A stretch of DNA of 45,007 bases from a phage: NCBI GenBank assembly GCA_014469095.1, contig GCA_014469095.1_4330.1; one strand, given 5' to 3'. Both the position numbers and the translations under genes were made by a program. The number at the start of each line of letters is the position of its first letter. Position 1 is the stretch's first letter. The notes beneath the pieces were generated by a model. The model saw only the letters and a program-made list of their open reading frames with translations. It ran no database searches and was not told the origin of the DNA. Shown one piece after another: positions 24,340 to 31,231 of this stretch.

Positions 24340-26678
24340 TATTTAAACCCCGGCGCGTTTCTTGTGGCCCTGCGGGCCTTGCTAATCTTACTATTACTGT
24401 TCTGCAAAGAGGCAGCTACCTGCTCCTCGATGATGATACGCAAACGGCCTTCATCATCTTGCTCAGTGGATACGTTGCCGATTTGAGAACTCGTGTTGTT
24501 TACGATAGTAACATTAGACGGTCCGGAAGAAGACCCGTTTTGCCCCATAATTTCTTTCATCTGCTGTGCGGTGCGTACACGTGACGCACCAGCGGGCATG
24601 ATAACTTCTGGTTTACCGCGTTCGGCGATGGTTGAAGCCTGCCCCGCGGATAACTGTCCGCCCTGTTCACGTGCGGACCTGATAGCGGAAATCTGCGCCA
24701 TGCCCGCCCCAACGGCAGCAGCGGCAGCTACAGGAGCCAGGAACGGGCCAACTACAGGGATAGCCGCTGTTGACTTATACGCCTCAATAGCCGCGGTGTA
24801 CGTGGCTATAGTGGCCTGCACGATAGCGAATGCCTTGTACGCGCCAGAAGCCTCGCCCAAAGCCGAACCGATGTTTGAGGCCATGTTACCGAAGGCCGTT
24901 GCCGTTGCGTCGGCACGCTTCGTGGCGTACTGCTCGTTGATGGCATTAAGCGCAGCCTGATACTGCTTCTCACTAATCAAACCCTGCTCGCGGTACTTAT
25001 CTGCTACCGACAGTTTCTGCTGTTCCTGAATGTTGAGAAGCTCAAGCTCAGCGGCGTTCTGACCCATAATCTGAGTCATGAAGTCTTCACCTTTCTGCTG
25101 CTTCTCCTGGGCTTCTTTCCTTTTCTTGTCCAGTTCTTCCTGGCGGGCCTGTTCGGCAGAGAGCATAATCTGCGTCTTGGCGTTTTCGTACTGCTGGTCG
25201 CTAAGAAGCTGATTGCCGTAAAACTCCTGTAGCTTGGTTAACTGCTGTTCCTGGTTGGCTTCTATTTTCTGGAATACATCATCATTGAGATGAATTGACT
25301 GATAGTAGAAATCCTCCGCGGCTTTCTTCTGGCGCTCGAACGCATCCGCTGCTTTCTTAGCGGCTTTTGCACCCGCGCTATCATCTTCAGATCCGCCGCC
25401 GGTACCAGTTACCTTAAATTTACTAAGCCCTTCTTCCTTAGCGGCTTCTTTGTCGATGTCATACGCTGCGCGTTTAAGCGCGACGATATTTTGCAGAGCT
25501 TCTACCTGTTCGCGGAAACTTTTACGCGTAACGTCGGCGACATCGCGCTGGGTATCCAAAGCCATGCCAAGCTGGAAGTTGATATTTTTAGCTACGTCTA
25601 CTGATTCCCCGGGGGTAAAAGCGGCGCGTACAAGACGGCCAGCGTCCTGAGCACCTTTAACCATATCTTCAAAGAATCTCTCCATCGCGGTGAACTCTTC
25701 CGCGATGAAGTCAAGAGCATCGGCGGCGGATTCAGCGATGGTGGTGGCCGTTTGTTCTCCGCTATCGGTAATACTCTTGCTGCTGAAATCCCACAGTTCA
25801 TTAAGCCCGTTGATGGCATCACCAACAAAGCCAAACGCAGCGTCGAATGACATCTCGATAGCGCTTCCTACTTCCGACGCTATGTCGCCCCACATCTGCA
25901 TTTCAGCGGCTAATTCACCGGAAGCAACAGACGCGTTTAATTCCTGGATCAAGTCATTGATATACCTGATAGGTTCCGCAAGTGCGCCAACATCAAGACT
26001 GGTGGCAAGCGTCATTTTTAGCTGCGACCATGAGTCACTGGCGCTCGCGATAGCGCCATTAAGGGTGTTGGCCTGGTCCGCCATGGCACCGGCAAAATTT
26101 ACGTTACCAATATTAAGTAAATACTGCTCAATATCGGCAGCGCTTTTCTTAACTACGGTTGTTGTCCCCTGGAATGTAAACTCTACGTCGTTTTTGTTCT
26201 GCTTGGCTTTGATGCCGAATTCTTTTAGGCGTTCGAACTCAAACGTACTGGCGTCGGCTACCGCCTCAATCATCTGATTAAGGTCCTTGCCCATAGCCGA
26301 TGCGGTATTGCCGTAGGACCGCAACGCCTCCTCGGATGGGGTAAGGCCAAGGGCCACCAGCTTACGGAAGCCTTCCACCGCCTGCTCCAGTCCGTATGGG
26401 GTATCGCGGGCAAAATCTTGCAGGATACTTAGCGCCTGTTTAGCACCTTGGGTACTTCCTGTTAAGGTCTTCAAACTGGCGGACATCTTGTCCAGTTGCC
26501 GCTGTGAGTCAACCAGTTCTTGGGCAGCTTTATACGCGGTAGCCGCTACGATAGAAGCAAGGCCTGCTACGGCGGCCCCCGCTACTTTTGCGGACTTTGA
26601 AAGGTTGTCAAGACGGTCTGATGTGGCTTTCGCGCCTTGCTCTGTTACTTTTACTACTAAACTAGCTACATCAGCCAT
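24339..26678 (-). CDS. Tail tape measure protein
   Basis: ORF track; 779 aa, Ala/Gln/Glu-rich helical sequence, follows the two chaperone genes. Confidence 0.8.
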   Translation of the reverse strand: MADVASLVVKVTEQGAKATSDRLDNLSKSAKVAGAAVAGLASIVAATAYKAAQELVDSQRQLDKMSASLKTLTGSTQGAKQALSILQDFARDTPYGLEQAVEGFRKLVALGLTPSEEALRSYGNTASAMGKDLNQMIEAVADASTFEFERLKEFGIKAKQNKNDVEFTFQGTTTVVKKSAADIEQYLLNIGNVNFAGAMADQANTLNGAIASASDSWSQLKMTLATSLDVGALAEPIRYINDLIQELNASVASGELAAEMQMWGDIASEVGSAIEMSFDAAFGFVGDAINGLNELWDFSSKSITDSGEQTATTIAESAADALDFIAEEFTAMERFFEDMVKGAQDAGRLVRAAFTPGESVDVAKNINFQLGMALDTQRDVADVTRKSFREQVEALQNIVALKRAAYDIDKEAAKEEGLSKFKVTGTGGGSEDDSAGAKAAKKAADAFERQKKAAEDFYYQSIHLNDDVFQKIEANQEQQLTKLQEFYGNQLLSDQQYENAKTQIMLSAEQARQEELDKKRKEAQEKQQKGEDFMTQIMGQNAAELELLNIQEQQKLSVADKYREQGLISEKQYQAALNAINEQYATKRADATATAFGNMASNIGSALGEASGAYKAFAIVQATIATYTAAIEAYKSTAAIPVVGPFLAPVAAAAAVGAGMAQISAIRSAREQGGQLSAGQASTIAERGKPEVIMPAGASRVRTAQQMKEIMGQNGSSSGPSNVTIVNNTSSQIGNVSTEQDDEGRLRIIIEEQVAASLQNSNSKISKARRATRNAPGFK

Positions 26679-27030
26679 CGTTTCTACCCTCGAAAATAGC
26701 GTCTAAGCTCATGATGATGTCGGATTCGAACATCCCTATATTCTGGCCTGAAACGGTGCTGTACGCCACTAAATCTGACCATCGTAATTGCTCGCGCGGG
26801 TACATCTTGATGCCGTCGTCGTCCACTCGGCGGGTGAATTTAATTTCCCTGTACTTCTCAAATGTGGTTAGTAGCTCAGGGGGGCATTCCGGCCCAGCGG
26901 CCTGCGTTGCATCCGGCGCGTCTTGCATAACCCCCATAGCAATTAGCGCGGCTTTATGCCCATCGGCGATACTGTCAAATTCCCGCCGTTTGTGGCGGGT
27001 TATGAAGTTCCAACGGGCGAACTGGAGCAA
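26671..27030 (-). CDS. Tail assembly chaperone, distal segment (possible frameshift partner)
   Basis: ORF track; lies in the -1 frame relative to 27036..27452 and overlaps the tape measure start. Confidence 0.5.
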   Translation of the reverse strand: MLQFARWNFITRHKRREFDSIADGHKAALIAMGVMQDAPDATQAAGPECPPELLTTFEKYREIKFTRRVDDDGIKMYPREQLRWSDLVAYSTVSGQNIGMFESDIIMSLDAIFEGRNDG

Positions 27031-27035
27031 CGCGT

Positions 27036-27452
27036 CTACTTTTCCTGTAGCTGGTGCAGTTGTTCGTTATGAAACACAACAACAAGTTCCGCGAGTCGTT
27101 TATATTGCGTCAGGAGTGTGTTCAGATTCTCTTTATTGAATTCGTCGTCAAGGCTCCACCCGTTAACCAATTCAATCGCTAACTGACGGTTAAGGTCCGT
27201 CGCCGCGTCTTCCATCTTCAGGTTGTATTCAGAGAAATCTTTCATCTCTTCGCACTTATCACGAAGCGGTTTTAATTTCCCTAATACTGCCCGGTATGCA
27301 AGGGTGAACGCGCGCATAGCCTTAACGGCAACGTCCGCCTCAGGAGAAACAACATTAAGCCATTCCCCGGAATCAGTACCGTCTTTTAGCGGTATCGGCA
27401 TACGTGCGCCCTTTTCGGCTTCCGCTTCGTAATAAAAATCAGAAAGTTTCAT
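27036..27452 (-). CDS. Tail assembly chaperone (lambda G-like)
   Basis: ORF track; acidic 138-aa protein between the major tail region and the tape measure. Confidence 0.55.
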   Translation of the reverse strand: MKLSDFYYEAEAEKGARMPIPLKDGTDSGEWLNVVSPEADVAVKAMRAFTLAYRAVLGKLKPLRDKCEEMKDFSEYNLKMEDAATDLNRQLAIELVNGWSLDDEFNKENLNTLLTQYKRLAELVVVFHNEQLHQLQEK

Positions 27453-27559
27453 TCTTTAATCCTTTGGTTAAGAGGTTACTGGTTAAAGGAAATGCGCCAG
27501 ACGGGAACCACCCGCTTTTCGTGTGCGACACTAGGCGCAAAATTATTCTAGCACACTAC

Positions 27560-27588
27560 TTGCACACCCCAATATAATAGCGTACTAT
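27560..27588 (+). promoter_or_regulatory. Sigma70-like promoter, type A (TTGCAC-N17-TACTAT) driving the rightward cassette
   Basis: TTGCAC-ACCCCAATATAATAGCG-TACTAT-TCAC. Confidence 0.6.
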
Positions 27589-27630
27589 TCACTTACACCA
27601 ACGATGTTATCTCAAATCAGGAGTTATGTT

Positions 27631-27822
27631 ATGACCGGTATCACTATGTTCTTCTTAATTATTTTTGTAGCCGTTTATTTTATCCCGTTTTTGGTGGCAC
27701 ATATGCGTAACCATAAAGCAAAGCTGGCGATATTCATGGCTAACTTATTTCTCGGGTGGATTCTGTTGCCGTGGGTATTCATTTTAATCTGGGCTTGCAA
27801 CTCGAACGTGAAAGAGAAGTAG
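27631..27822 (+). CDS. Superinfection-immunity-like small membrane protein (T4 Imm-like)
   Basis: ORF track 27604..27822; ATG at 27631 with SD CAGGAG; YFIPFLVAHMRNHKAKLAIFMANLFLGWILLPWVFILIWA matches the recalled Imm-family signature YF-P...R-H-N...NL-LGW...W..LIWA. Confidence 0.6.
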   Translation: MTGITMFFLIIFVAVYFIPFLVAHMRNHKAKLAIFMANLFLGWILLPWVFILIWACNSNVKEK

Positions 27823-27860
27823 GCTACTATAAGACAAATCCTAAACACGAGGAAGTAAGC

Positions 27861-28991
27861 ATGGCCCAGAAGAAAATAACCGACGAGCAATTACAGGAAG
27901 AATTGAACGCCGGGATGAAGAATATCGATATCGCCCGTAAATACGGAATCTCAGACCGCGTTATCCGAATACGTAAAGCTAAGCTGGCTAAGAAAGGCGT
28001 AGGCCACGGGCGGGACGTAAGCCACCTTGTACCAGACGGCTACAAGATTAAAGGCACGTCGTCTCTGGTGGACGAGTTCGGTAACACTAAGTTGCAGTGG
28101 GTTAAGACAGACACCGATGCCGAACGTCAGGTTGAGTTGATGAAAGCCGTAGTCGAAGGCATGAAGTCGGAGATTACTCCCGTTCCGCCAGTTAAGGCCG
28201 CCCGGACTAAACGTGACGACAAGCTGCTTAACCTGTACACCGTGTCTGATTTCCATCTCGGTATGTTAGCCTGGGCTGACGAGAGCGGCGACGACTGGGA
28301 TATGAAAATCGCGGAGGACTTATTCTCTCGTTGGTTTGATGCTGCGTTTCAGAAAGCACCGGATGCAGGTACGGGGGTTATTAATCTTCTTGGCGACTTA
28401 GCTCACTTCGATAGTCTTGACGCCGTTACACCGGCGAGTGGTCATGTCCTTGACGCCGACACGCGTTACCAGAAACTTGTCCGCTACATGATTCGCATGG
28501 TCCGCCGTGTTGTTGATATGGCTCTGGTTAAGCATAAAACTGTTCGCTTGCTTATAGTTCAGGGGAACCACGACGAATCCGGGATGATTTGGTTGGCTGA
28601 GATGTTCAGTACGCTGTACGACAATGAGCCGCGCGTGTTCGTCGATACGTCGCCGGATGTTTACAAGATGGTGCAACACGGCAAAACGACGCTGTTCTTC
28701 CATCACGGGCATAAAGCACGATTCGACGCTATCGAACCGGTTATGATTGCCAAGTTCCGTAAAGCGTTCGGCGAGAGTGTTTACAGCTACGCCCACGTAG
28801 GCCATCTGCACCACCAGAAGATTGTAGAAAGCCGTAACATGATTGTTGAGCAACACCGCACCTTAGCGGCTAAAGACGCCTACGCCTCTCGCGGCGGATG
28901 GATGTCGGGCCGCAGTGCAAATGTAATTACTTATAGCGCCGAATATGGCGAGGTCGCACGTTTAACTATTTCACCGGAGATGCTGGGATGA
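27861..28991 (+). CDS. HTH-fused calcineurin-like metallophosphoesterase (Mre11/SbcD-type motifs)
   Basis: ORF track 27756..28991; ATG at 27861 with SD GAGGAAG; N-terminal HTH-like NIDIARKYGISDRVIRIRKAKL; phosphoesterase motifs VSDFHLG, LLGDLAHFD, LIVQGNHDESG, FHHGH. Confidence 0.65.
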   Translation: MAQKKITDEQLQEELNAGMKNIDIARKYGISDRVIRIRKAKLAKKGVGHGRDVSHLVPDGYKIKGTSSLVDEFGNTKLQWVKTDTDAERQVELMKAVVEGMKSEITPVPPVKAARTKRDDKLLNLYTVSDFHLGMLAWADESGDDWDMKIAEDLFSRWFDAAFQKAPDAGTGVINLLGDLAHFDSLDAVTPASGHVLDADTRYQKLVRYMIRMVRRVVDMALVKHKTVRLLIVQGNHDESGMIWLAEMFSTLYDNEPRVFVDTSPDVYKMVQHGKTTLFFHHGHKARFDAIEPVMIAKFRKAFGESVYSYAHVGHLHHQKIVESRNMIVEQHRTLAAKDAYASRGGWMSGRSANVITYSAEYGEVARLTISPEMLG

Positions 28992-29476
28992 AAGATATTG
29001 TAATTTTCGATTTAGACGGGACATTGGCCGACGGTACCCATCGCTTACACCTGTTACCAAAAGATAACTACGGAGAAACGTGGGCGTGGAAGCCATTTAA
29101 CATGGCCTGCAAAGATGACGCTCCGATATACGACAATATCCATTTGTGTAGCGTACTGTGGCATTCCGGACTTACTATAATTATCCTTACCGGGCGAAGT
29201 GATGACGCTGAGGAGGAGACTCGCGAATGGTTACGAGAGAATAACGTTAGGTTTGACACGCTAATCATGCGCAGCAAACACGACAACAGAAAAGACATCG
29301 TAATTAAAGAAGAGGTGTTGCGTGCTTTCGGACTGGAAAGAATCTTGTGTGCGTTCGACGACTCTCCAGCGGTAATAAAGCATTTCCGTGACCTCGGCAT
29401 AACCGCACACGCAGTTACCGAATACGACTGTAACGGGAACTCTACACACTTAAAACCACACGGGAGCGATAAATAA
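28988..29476 (+). CDS. HAD-superfamily phosphatase resembling the T4 polynucleotide kinase 3-prime phosphatase domain
   Basis: ORF track; IVIFDLDGTLADG (DxDGT), IILTGRSDD and RKDIVIKEE, recalled as close to the T4 Pnk C-terminal domain (VIFDVDGTLA, VVVSGRESG, RKDDVVKEE). Confidence 0.65.
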   Translation: MKDIVIFDLDGTLADGTHRLHLLPKDNYGETWAWKPFNMACKDDAPIYDNIHLCSVLWHSGLTIIILTGRSDDAEEETREWLRENNVRFDTLIMRSKHDNRKDIVIKEEVLRAFGLERILCAFDDSPAVIKHFRDLGITAHAVTEYDCNGNSTHLKPHGSDK

Positions 29477-30030
29477 TGGCTAAGGTAATTATTCTTAATG
29501 GCCCTGCGGGTTGCGGGAAAGACACGCTTGCTATGGCGCTGGTAGAAATGGGCTTTGCGAAAGGAACTACCAGTTTCAAGAATCCAATGTTCAATATTGC
29601 TTTGGCAGCGTTAGGCCAGGATGCTTACCACGAATTTCTCGACGGCTACGACGACCGGGCGCGGAAAGAAAAACCCGAGGGTTTTCTTAATGGGTTGTCC
29701 CGCCGCCGGTTAATGATTGCCATTTCTGAGCAATTCATTAAACCGGTATTCGGCGATGATTATTTCGGTAAGTATCTTGCTGAAAACTTGCCTGACGGCG
29801 ACGAAGTTTTTGTAGTGTCCGATGGTGGATTCGCCAGTGAAGTTGCCCCTATCGTCGCCGCGGGGCATGACGTGCGAATCGTCCGCCTCCATCGTGACGG
29901 CTATACGTTCATCTGCGATAGCCGTGGCTATCTGTACGATGTTAGTGGTGTAAAAGATTACGACACCTACATCATACCGGGTGACGTTAAATCGAACGTT
30001 ATAGACATTGCTTTAAAATTAGGTTTGTAA
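29476..30030 (+). CDS. P-loop kinase, dNMP-kinase-like (T4 gene 1 type); polynucleotide kinase is the alternative
   Basis: ORF track; P-loop GPAGCGKDT (the GKDT variant recalled for phage dNMP kinases), SRRRLMIAI; start overlaps the phosphatase stop by 1 nt. Confidence 0.55.
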   Translation: MAKVIILNGPAGCGKDTLAMALVEMGFAKGTTSFKNPMFNIALAALGQDAYHEFLDGYDDRARKEKPEGFLNGLSRRRLMIAISEQFIKPVFGDDYFGKYLAENLPDGDEVFVVSDGGFASEVAPIVAAGHDVRIVRLHRDGYTFICDSRGYLYDVSGVKDYDTYIIPGDVKSNVIDIALKLGL

Positions 30031-30034
30031 GAAA

Positions 30035-30061
30035 AAGGCCCCGAAAGGGGCCTTAGTTTTA
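30035..30061. terminator. Bidirectional intrinsic terminator (AAGGCCCC-N4-GGGGCCTT family)
   Basis: AAGGCCCC-GAAA-GGGGCCTT then AGTTTTA. Confidence 0.75.
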
Positions 30062-31231
30062 TGCGTAGGTGATACGTTGAATTACGATAGACGACTGGTA
30101 CTGATTGCCGGTAGCCTGGCCTTCAATGGACTGAGTGATTGACTCAGGCCCACCAATCTCAGGTGTAACCGCCGTAAGCTCTGCACGTTTCAAACTGAAA
30201 GACATAGCCCCGTTTACCCCTGCCAGAATAGAGTTAATCTCTACATGCTGCTCGTTGATAAACTTCTGAATCATCGCCATGTCGTACAGCTTGCCAGAGA
30301 TAGAGAATGTGTTAGCTGCGCGTCCACGTTCGACGAACGCCACGCTACTGTTACCGAGTTCGAACTGCGCGGAAGCTCCGTTGTCGTTGGTGATGGTGAG
30401 AGTATCGCAACGCAACGGCGTGGAGCCATCGAACACCGACACATCTACCGACGAGAACGGCTCATCGGTGAACGTAACCTGAGAGAAATCAGAGCCAGAC
30501 GGCGGCGCGGTAAGAATCTCCTGACTCAGGCCGATGAACGGGAAGCTGCCGGTGACCATGGCGTTAACCGCCTGCTCTACGGTAAAGCCAGAGATTTCCA
30601 CACCTTTGGTCAGCATGTACGCGTCCGGGTTACCACACTGGCCCTTGAACCACGTCAGGATGGAGAACGTCTTACACGCGTTACCGGTTTCCAGCTTGTC
30701 GCCAGTTTTTGCGTCAGTGGTTACTGTCTCTACTGTCAGCGTGTGCTGAATACCTGCGCCCGTAACTACCAGAGCGGAAACCGCGGTCACGATAAACGGT
30801 TTTGCGTTGTCGCCGGTTAAGTCGGTGAACGCAATAAGGTCGCCAACTTCTACACCGTCAGTAATGAAGCTACCGGCAGCGCGGGTGAATGTTTTACCTG
30901 CTGGGGCGACCGTAATTTCGGCGCCAGTAATCTCTACCCCAGCTTGCCACGTAGAAGTCATCGCTCCCGCAAGGAAATCATCCTGGCTACGAGAGCTAAG
31001 TTCGATGGCGTACTCCCCGCTAACCTGTTTGTTACCGGTTCGGATGGATGTAGTTTCACGGCTGCCGTCCAGTTCGTTGGAAGTCAGTGCATCGCGGGTT
31101 ACAGCGGGAACGCCGCCCGTGTTACGCAACGGCGACCATACCGGGTTAGTCGGTGTTACGCCAAAGGTATTTTCCGCCACATAGAATTGCGCGGTATTCG
31201 CGCCCTTAAAAGGAGTTGTAGCCATATTCAC
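30059..31231 (-). CDS. Major tail (tube) protein
   Basis: ORF track; 390 aa, Thr/Gly/Ser-rich, positioned between the tail completion genes and the chaperones. Confidence 0.6.
   Translation of the reverse strand: MNMATTPFKGANTAQFYVAENTFGVTPTNPVWSPLRNTGGVPAVTRDALTSNELDGSRETTSIRTGNKQVSGEYAIELSSRSQDDFLAGAMTSTWQAGVEITGAEITVAPAGKTFTRAAGSFITDGVEVGDLIAFTDLTGDNAKPFIVTAVSALVVTGAGIQHTLTVETVTTDAKTGDKLETGNACKTFSILTWFKGQCGNPDAYMLTKGVEISGFTVEQAVNAMVTGSFPFIGLSQEILTAPPSGSDFSQVTFTDEPFSSVDVSVFDGSTPLRCDTLTITNDNGASAQFELGNSSVAFVERGRAANTFSISGKLYDMAMIQKFINEQHVEINSILAGVNGAMSFSLKRAELTAVTPEIGGPESITQSIEGQATGNQYQSSIVIQRITYA

Follow-up and report, generated by a model that had tools for sequence, protein, structure and literature searches.

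The 45,007-nucleotide phage contig GCA_014469095.1_4330.1 (NCBI GenBank assembly GCA_014469095.1), referred to here over its full length as the window, is a Kagunavirus genome (Guernseyvirinae), and within its tail module it carries a cassette of four genes encoding an Imm-like membrane protein, a metallophosphoesterase, a HAD phosphatase and a P-loop kinase. The region from 27400 to 30100 shares 99.4% identity with Escherichia phage SHAK7858 and 97.5% with phage Golestan, and it matches 324 phage records, 51 of them at a coverage of at least 80%. A first-pass annotation of the window had placed four plus-strand open reading frames (ORFs) between the tail and chaperone genes, and all four were found there. 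It had also described the cassette as an insertion, unfamiliar as a fixed four-gene unit at this locus. Such an insertion is neither peculiar to this genome nor new, as the same arrangement occurs in the 51 records mentioned above, represents the normal Kagunavirus organization in GenBank, and has been annotated since phage K1ind1, while the enzyme trio has been described for Drexlerviridae (PMC13164509). The four genes are flanked on both sides by minus-strand genes:

26671-27030 and 27036-27452, minus strand, tail-assembly chaperone genes
27631-27822, plus strand, Imm-like small membrane protein of 63 amino acids from the ATG at 27631 (Pfam Imm_superinfect, phrog_1039)
27861-28991, plus strand, calcineurin-type metallophosphoesterase of 376 amino acids, fused to a helix-turn-helix (HTH) domain (phrog_704)
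28988-29476, plus strand, stand-alone HAD phosphatase of the Pnkp-phosphatase type, 162 amino acids (Pfam HAD_PNKP, phrog_415)
29476-30030, plus strand, P-loop kinase of the T4 gp1/deoxynucleoside monophosphate (dNMP) kinase type, 184 amino acids (phrog_139)
30059-31231, minus strand, tail tube gene (Pfam Phage_tube_2, 1e-34)

The cassette shares its strand with the replication genes, and the structural genes occupy the opposite one. The stop codon of the phosphoesterase gene overlaps the start codon of the HAD gene (ATGA, 28988) and the same holds for the HAD stop and the kinase start (TAATG, 29476), such that the translational coupling noted in the first-pass annotation is visible in the sequence, as is the position of the phosphatase before the kinase, which reverses the order found in T4 Pnk. 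The Imm-like ORF opens at 27604, previously taken as its start; the likely start is the ATG at 27631, which lies 7 nucleotides after an AGGAG motif and is annotated as such in relatives. Comparison with three relatives by the ratio of nonsynonymous to synonymous substitution rates (dN/dS) revealed purifying selection on all four genes: the phosphoesterase gave values of 0.02-0.035 and the remaining genes values of 0-0.16 (0.03-0.12 for the Imm-like gene), with an approximately five-fold difference in selection strength between the phosphoesterase and the HAD-kinase pair. A foreign origin of the cassette was considered and is unsupported: its GC content is 0.44-0.52, compared with approximately 0.50-0.54 in the flanks, and conservation of the island extends over the whole subfamily.

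The metallophosphoesterase matched phrog_704 (1.8e-167) and has an N-terminal HTH domain, while its Pfam scores stayed below the gathering cutoffs (Metallophos_2, 21.7 versus 27; Metallophos, 18.8 versus 21.5). Despite these sub-cutoff scores, the predicted fold identifies it unambiguously as a divergent calcineurin-type enzyme: with the AlphaFold2 (AF2) model (pLDDT 86, the per-residue confidence measure), Foldseek returned Mre11, Rv0805 (E 1e-8) and PolD DP1 at a probability of 1.0. As these three match approximately equally well, the fold does not fix the substrate of the enzyme. The five calcineurin-type metal-binding motifs (DxH, GD, GNH[DE], H, and GHxH) are present, and in an alignment of 123 homologues (26-99% identity) residues D130, H132, N236, H237, H282, H315, and H317 are invariant, with D179 and D238 conserved at 90% or more, in line with the enzyme class to which the protein had initially been assigned. 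The family moreover possesses a specific conserved insert, TPxSGHxLDxDxR. By sequence the protein falls outside the Mre11/SbcD family, and the annotation of the closest fully annotated relative contains no SbcC-like gene. It also falls outside the family of T5 A1, which belongs to phrog_1745. Profile comparison with A1 using hhalign yielded a probability of 19-24% (24.5% highest), with motifs III-V in register and an NHDxAxSxWL context common to both proteins, and the phage SbcD control (T5 D12) scored clearly lower, at 0.1%. A BFVD fold search with the phosphoesterase returned family members, and A1 was not recognisable among the unnamed entries; searches of the phosphoesterase and the kinase against the sequences of solved structures, with single sequences as well as profiles, gave P-loop or HTH matches only.

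Three further observations concern this protein family. Residues 31-69 of an A1-like protein of Caulobacter phage Ccr34 (L016:82-1782) align weakly with the phrog_704 HTH, which hints at a common HTH-plus-phosphoesterase architecture. The phosphoesterase of Salmonella phage TUMS_E4 (L012:3501-4652) is a mosaic, with an N-terminal HTH/beta module nearly identical to that of phage AG11 and whole-protein identities to the window phosphoesterase of 55% (TUMS_E4) and 88% (AG11), a pattern that suggests recombination at a domain boundary. Finally, the 45-amino-acid ORF gp31 of Golestan (L001:9919-10056) is annotated as 'exonuclease subunit SbcD', for which it is far too short, and has the look of an annotation artefact.

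The HAD phosphatase matched Pfam HAD_PNKP (PF25109; 73.1 bits versus 27.6, E 3e-20) and phrog_415 (3e-64), the latter of which also contains T5 Dmp, a 5'-dNMPase. Its profile aligned with the T4-type Pnkp phosphatase domain over the full length (hhalign, 98.8%, E 1e-16; 33% identity to the profile), and its PDB matches were Pnkp1 and T4 Pnk. Motifs I-IV are conserved, including DxDGT (D8, D10), T68/R70, the D99-R-K-D103 block, and D124-D125, and residues D8, D10, T68, D99, D103, K107, and D125 are invariant in the family. The kinase matched phrog_139 (3e-44), as does T4-type gp1 (7e-66), and its AF2 model (pLDDT 94) found the T4 dNMP kinase 1DEK as best PDB match (template modelling (TM) score 0.66 on the query, GKDT P-loop in both), followed by phosphomevalonate kinase and adenylate kinases. 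Neither T4 Pnk nor any polynucleotide kinase was among the top 50 PDB matches of this fold search, and alignment with Pnk was confined to the P-loop. The identities that the first-pass annotation had given to the four proteins agree with the Imm, Metallophos/phrog_704, HAD_PNKP, and phrog_139 matches. A search of NCBIfam returned nothing useful, and no cassette protein matched a defence-system model in PADLOC.

An exhaustive search of 1.84 billion representatives placed 8468 clusters in the kinase family, mostly stand-alone, and recovered three fusions: two of HAD_PNKP with the kinase and one of the kinase with dUTPase. One HAD-kinase fusion arranges its domains in the order of the window genes, with identities of 45% to the HAD phosphatase and 46% to the kinase encoded there, and the dUTPase-fused homologue is 37% identical to the window kinase. 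Shared ancestry is not corrected for in these counts. The window cassette itself does not encode a T4 Pnkp-type bifunctional enzyme, considering that its genes are separate, stand in reverse order, and include no Pnk-type kinase domain. The HAD phosphatase and the kinase very likely work together.

Members of the three enzyme families were encountered in 2050 (phosphoesterase), 1536 (kinase), and 2371 (HAD phosphatase) phage records, and close copies (at least 80% identity) in approximately 292 records for the phosphoesterase and approximately 55 for the HAD phosphatase and the kinase. In both Guernseyvirinae and Drexlerviridae the phosphoesterase belongs to the core genes, and it is the constant element of the island; the HAD-kinase pair is accessory. 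In Jerseyvirus the island and its phosphoesterase are kept and the pair is absent, with small genes, HNH or Rha/Ant in its place; the island there consists of a small protein (Imm in TUMS_E4), the phosphoesterase, and a 76-amino-acid ORF, with or without HNH and Rha/Ant. In Klebsiella Webervirus the phosphoesterase, HAD, and kinase genes are contiguous and adjoin the lysis genes. In T1 a HAD-HNH-kinase block lies in the early region and the phosphoesterase gene 35 kb off, upstream of lysis, and in a Bonnellvirus the order is exonuclease, endonuclease, phosphoesterase, an unnamed gene, HAD, and dGTP diphosphohydrolase. The idea that the four genes form a fixed unit does not survive the retention of the phosphoesterase only in Jerseyvirus and the separation of the genes in T1. 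For Drexlerviridae, a phosphoesterase-lysis core was reported in 508 of 522 genomes, with polynucleotide kinase and dNMP kinase genes directly after it and a nucleotide-supply role proposed (PMC13164509, 2026). T5-like phages also keep A1 near a HAD gene of phrog_415: two small ORFs separate them in T5, and in Vibrio phage D232 they are direct neighbours.

Linkage was assessed by scanning viral contigs with the kinase profile, which recovered 80 loci, grouped at 70% identity into 42 clusters, and the neighbour counts derived from these ignore shared ancestry. Five of the 42 clusters have the order phrog_704 phosphoesterase-HAD-kinase and three more have HAD-kinase, and tightly abutting or overlapping HAD and kinase ORF calls are found in other lineages as well. 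In six T7-like clusters a phrog_221/Metallophos phosphoesterase precedes the kinase by at most two genes, and in one of these six the HAD gene stands between them. Linkage of a phosphoesterase to the kinase recurs with phrog_704 and phrog_221, in Guernseyvirinae, Drexlerviridae, T7-like contigs, and a 74-kb contig. Among the 123 neighbour proteins of the kinase were also dUTPase (6), endonuclease VII (5), 5'-3' exonuclease, and MazG, and other contexts included dCMP deaminase-phosphoesterase-deoxyribosyltransferase-like-kinase and dCMP deaminase-kinase. Taken together, the modelled fold of the kinase, its family, the dUTPase fusion, and its neighbours point to deoxynucleotide-pool chemistry, not to polynucleotide ends.

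Several neighbourhoods showed additional features. In Escherichia phage usur (L004:6802-7386) the HAD gene is followed by a gene for a dATP/dGTP diphosphohydrolase N-terminal-domain protein, a further enzyme of the nucleotide pool, not by the kinase gene. HNH homing endonuclease genes occur in or beside the module in several lineages (L009:5465-5959, T1; L012:4671-5171; L006:6241-6750), and the one in T1 lies between the HAD and kinase genes. The phrog_704 phosphoesterase gene adjoins holin/endolysin genes in Drexlerviridae, Dhillonvirus, Rhodobacter phage RcAqua, and a Vibrio phage, and does not do so in Guernseyvirinae.

The cassette is tentatively interpreted as a module for host-DNA breakdown and nucleotide conditioning, analogous to T5 A1/Dmp/Dnk, a reading to which we give slightly less than an even chance. 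Following this interpretation, the HTH-metallophosphoesterase would most likely be a DNA-directed nuclease that degrades the host chromosome, resembling T5 A1 in function but not orthologous to it. In favour of this role stand its invariant or nearly invariant metal ligands, a dN/dS of approximately 0.02, the N-terminal HTH, the nucleases Mre11 and PolD DP1 (an exonuclease) among its fold neighbours, and a profile that is weakly closer to A1 than to a phage SbcD. The HAD enzyme would strip phosphomonoesters from the breakdown products, either 3'-phosphates on ends or mononucleotides, or the phosphates of selected dNMPs, and the gp1-type kinase would convert dNMPs to the corresponding diphosphates for the DNA polymerase of the phage. 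Both would be made together through translational coupling and act as a pair. Since a general 5'-dNMPase co-translated with the kinase would create a futile cycle with it, a 3'-phosphatase or a selective nucleotidase is the more plausible activity of the HAD enzyme. The sequence data establish the gene anatomy, the family memberships, the intact catalytic motifs, purifying selection, the repeated linkage of the three enzyme types, and the fusion of the last two; the substrates, all of them, the timing of expression, and the degradation of host DNA itself are inferred. Of the two readings put forward in the first-pass annotation, nucleic-acid end-healing and T5-like recycling, the evidence leans to recycling (1DEK, phrog_139, the dUTPase fusion, and the neighbours), and end-healing keeps the Pnkp-type HAD phosphatase on its side.

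The biological background is compatible with such a module. T5 A1 is both required and sufficient for the degradation of host DNA (bioRxiv 10.64898/2026.04.02.716235), and T1-type phages (T1, TLS) degrade host DNA and reuse its nucleotides, a process to which no gene has been assigned (PMC11447400). Guernseyvirinae are sensitive to Ec2ApeA, a deoxydinucleotide sensor, the authors of which attribute the deoxydinucleotides to host DNA breakdown. The phage encodes its own polymerase, and no other nucleotide-metabolism gene was found in the annotation of the relative or in the window. A bolder version of the proposal holds that the phrog_704 phosphoesterase is the host-chromosome-destroying enzyme of T1-like and Guernsey-like siphoviruses, independent of T5 A1, with the HAD-kinase pair (split or fused) as a hitherto unrecognised bifunctional 'phosphatase-then-kinase' nucleotide conditioner that feeds the products into phage replication; we consider this doubtful.

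Several observations weigh against the breakdown-and-conditioning interpretation. The likeness of the HAD phosphatase to the Pnkp 3'-phosphatase extends over its full length and that to Dmp over only 52 N-terminal residues (direct comparison, probability 85%), and in direct comparison the kinase profile matches gp1 modestly (probability 51%, 44 residues), no better than it matches the P-loop of Pnk. The phosphoesterase showed no significant match to T5 A1 by BLASTP or hmmsearch (approximately 6 bits in the latter), and Rv0805, a cyclic-nucleotide phosphodiesterase, is equally near to its fold. Jerseyvirus and many other phages have the phosphoesterase but lack the HAD-kinase pair, and in T1 the two lie at separate places. 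Moreover, 34 of the 42 kinase clusters have neither a phrog_704 phosphoesterase nor a phrog_415 HAD gene within 6 kb, although six of these 34 have a phrog_221 phosphoesterase at most two genes before the kinase, and the commonest neighbour of the kinase is DNA ligase (13 of the 123 neighbour proteins), mostly from one group of approximately 53-kb contigs with the order ligase-kinase-dUTPase. Finally, the literature yielded no experiment on host DNA degradation by any Kagunavirus, and nothing was found on the mapping of T1 gene 2.5 or on Jerseyvirus transcriptomes.

These HAD and ligase observations would fit an end-healing system, which we regard as an unlikely but serious alternative. The HAD phosphatase and kinase would then form a split, reverse-order analogue of Pnkp (3'-phosphatase plus 5'-kinase), to which the phosphoesterase would add a 2',3'-cyclic phosphodiesterase or end-trimming activity, for the repair of DNA nicks, sealed by host LigA, or of RNA cut by defence nucleases. 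Coverage of the whole T4-type Pnkp phosphatase domain by the HAD profile, together with the Pnkp1 and T4 Pnk matches in the PDB, argues in its favour, as do the HAD-kinase fusions, which have the domain content of Pnkp, and the calcineurin-type phosphatase of bacterial Pnkp. It is likewise supported by the genes around the kinase family, among which DNA ligase is the commonest, and by one contig with the order phosphoesterase-kinase-ligase, although the ligase adjacency stems largely from one contig group and mirrors that in T7, where ligase and nucleotide kinase genes are also near each other. The kinase, however, has the fold and PHROG of a gp1-type dNMP kinase, with polynucleotide kinases lacking from its top 50 fold matches, and the dUTPase fusion and nucleotide-pool neighbours favour a small-molecule substrate. 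Neither an RNA or DNA ligase gene nor a tRNA gene is present in the closest fully annotated relative or in the window, in agreement with the first-pass annotation, which had seen no ligase. In addition, its core status and very low dN/dS set the phosphoesterase apart from typical accessory counter-defence genes.

The cassette may, less probably still, not be one functional unit. The phosphoesterase would then be a core gene with a role of its own, as a replication/recombination nuclease or a lysis-linked late function, and the Imm-like gene and the HAD-kinase pair would be unconnected accessory genes gathered in a permissive slot between tail transcription units. The variable island content across Jerseyvirus, the 35 kb between HAD-HNH-kinase and phosphoesterase in T1, and the approximately five-fold selection difference between phosphoesterase and pair are in favour of this explanation, as is the position of the phosphoesterase beside lysis genes in 508 of 522 Drexlerviridae (PMC13164509), Dhillonvirus, RcAqua, and a Vibrio phage. 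On the other hand, contiguity of phosphoesterase, kinase, and in part HAD genes recurs in several unrelated lineages and with two phosphoesterase families, the ATGA overlap couples the phosphoesterase and HAD genes, and the A1-HAD pairing in T5-like phages (close in T5, adjacent in D232) offers a parallel. A counter-defence role, with the phosphoesterase cleaving cyclic-nucleotide immune signals and the HAD phosphatase and kinase resetting the nucleotide products, is very improbable, as Rv0805 among the top fold matches is the sole point in its favour, against which stand the fused HTH DNA-binding domain, the core-gene status and extreme conservation of the phosphoesterase, its DNA-metabolism neighbours, and the lack of any matching PADLOC model.

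The gene that heads the cassette encodes a protein that matched Pfam Imm_superinfect (PF14373; 50.6 bits versus a cutoff of 27.9, E 1.8e-13) and phrog_1039 (3e-24), and that is predicted to be a small two-helix inner-membrane protein of the T4 Imm family. It probably excludes the DNA of superinfecting phages. As part of the breakdown-and-conditioning interpretation, and sharing its not quite even chance, it may be a superinfection-exclusion gene unrelated to the enzyme module behind it.

With respect to transcription, two candidate promoters in the spacer upstream of the cassette and one terminator at its end are relevant:

27560-27588, plus strand, candidate sigma-70-type cassette promoter, TTGCAC (27560), 17 nucleotides, TACTAT (27583-88); weak match, read from sequence
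27575-27602, minus strand, candidate divergent promoter for the chaperone, tape-measure, and tail genes, TTGGTG, 16 nucleotides, TATTAT; read from sequence
30035-30054, both strands, bidirectional intrinsic terminator AAGGCCCCGAAAGGGGCCTT, common to the cassette and the convergent tail tube gene

The spacer (27453-27630) is 80% conserved between Kagunavirus and Jerseyvirus and contains these two weak, overlapping, divergent sigma-70-like candidates. A consensus scan of this stretch detected no sigma-70 site; since neither candidate reaches the scan threshold, the strong promoter postulated in the first-pass annotation is unsupported. The best conserved candidate, that for the cassette, matches the consensus at just 7 of 12 positions, and its TTGC and TAnTAT elements and their spacing are common to Kagunavirus and Jerseyvirus; a TATAAT at 27573 is not kept in Jerseyvirus. 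The divergent candidate, likewise below the threshold, has a conserved TTGATG...TATTAA counterpart in Jerseyvirus and may represent a minus-strand promoter. If both were active, RNA polymerase on one of the overlapping promoters might exclude the other and thereby provide an early/late switch. The terminator that had been proposed is real and strong, and it is bidirectional in addition: the hairpin at 30035-54 has an 8-bp stem with 6 GC pairs and predicted folding free energies (dG) of -18.3 (plus strand) and -15.4 (minus strand) kcal/mol (z-scores -4.1 and -3.8). As its U-run is better on the minus strand, the tail-tube transcript would also end there, and given this good minus-strand terminator after the tail tube gene, the downstream tail genes would need their own promoter. 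The cassette is accordingly envisaged as an island on the replication-gene strand that would be transcribed by host RNA polymerase and split the tail operon into two transcription units. A conserved GC hairpin at 27496-27526 was also considered as a terminator and dropped, as it folds no better than shuffled sequences (z-scores -0.3 and +0.2).

Next to the cassette, the two minus-strand chaperone ORFs (26671-27452) meet at approximately 27030-27050, where the first ends with CAG GAA AAG TAG and the second continues in another frame. A joined chaperone coding sequence is annotated in the K1ind1 record, and the junction probably reflects the programmed -1 frameshift that is usual for such chaperones.

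As a sequence feature the cassette is ordinary, with many copies in GenBank and its enzyme trio already in print, and what is new here is only a sharpened, testable hypothesis that constitutes a useful experimental lead. It provides the phosphoesterase as a concrete candidate for the host-genome degradation gene of the T1/TLS family, being core, strongly constrained, and linked to nucleotide-handling enzymes. Phage therapy and biocontrol make use of Guernseyvirinae and Drexlerviridae, and destruction of host DNA bears on the risk of transduction as well as on the triggering of ApeA-type defence.

Compared with known systems, the cassette matches T5 A1/Dmp/Dnk in all three enzyme classes (metallophosphoesterase, phrog_415 HAD phosphatase, and dNMP kinase) and in the proximity of the phosphoesterase and HAD genes, which are adjacent in D232. 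It differs in that A1 belongs to phrog_1745 and matches the window phosphoesterase at a profile probability of just 19-24%, that Dmp aligns with the N-terminal 52 residues of the HAD phosphatase only, and that the T5 kinase gene lies outside the pre-early block holding A1 and dmp; dnk was not located in the T5 stretch examined. Unlike the role proposed for the cassette, T5 excretes the breakdown products and does not reuse them (bioRxiv 10.64898/2026.04.02.716235). Mre11/SbcD shares with the phosphoesterase the calcineurin-type fold and the five metal-binding motifs, and Mre11 was among its top Foldseek matches, but the window protein has its N-terminal HTH and TPxSGHxLDxDxR insert, scored 0.1% against the T5 D12 profile, and has no Rad50/SbcC partner annotated nearby. 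With T4 Pnkp/PseT the cassette has in common a full-length homologous HAD domain, a P-loop kinase that would be functionally coupled to it, and the existence of fused homologues, whereas its genes are separate and in reverse order, its kinase belongs to the gp1/phosphomevalonate-kinase clade and not the Pnk clade, and a partner ligase of the Rnl type is absent from the annotation of the closest relative and from the window. T4 gp1 (PDB 1DEK) is the best structural match of the kinase and shares phrog_139 and the GKDT P-loop with it, at approximately 19% identity and with a length of 241 amino acids as compared to 184. A further counterpart in gene content is the Drexlerviridae block 'DNA repair exonuclease - polynucleotide kinase - dNMP kinase', as in Klebsiella phage KPN N141: this block stands beside the lysis cassette instead of inside the tail module, has no Imm gene, and in T1 has the pair apart from the phosphoesterase, but it consists of the same families in the same order, at 41-56% identity.

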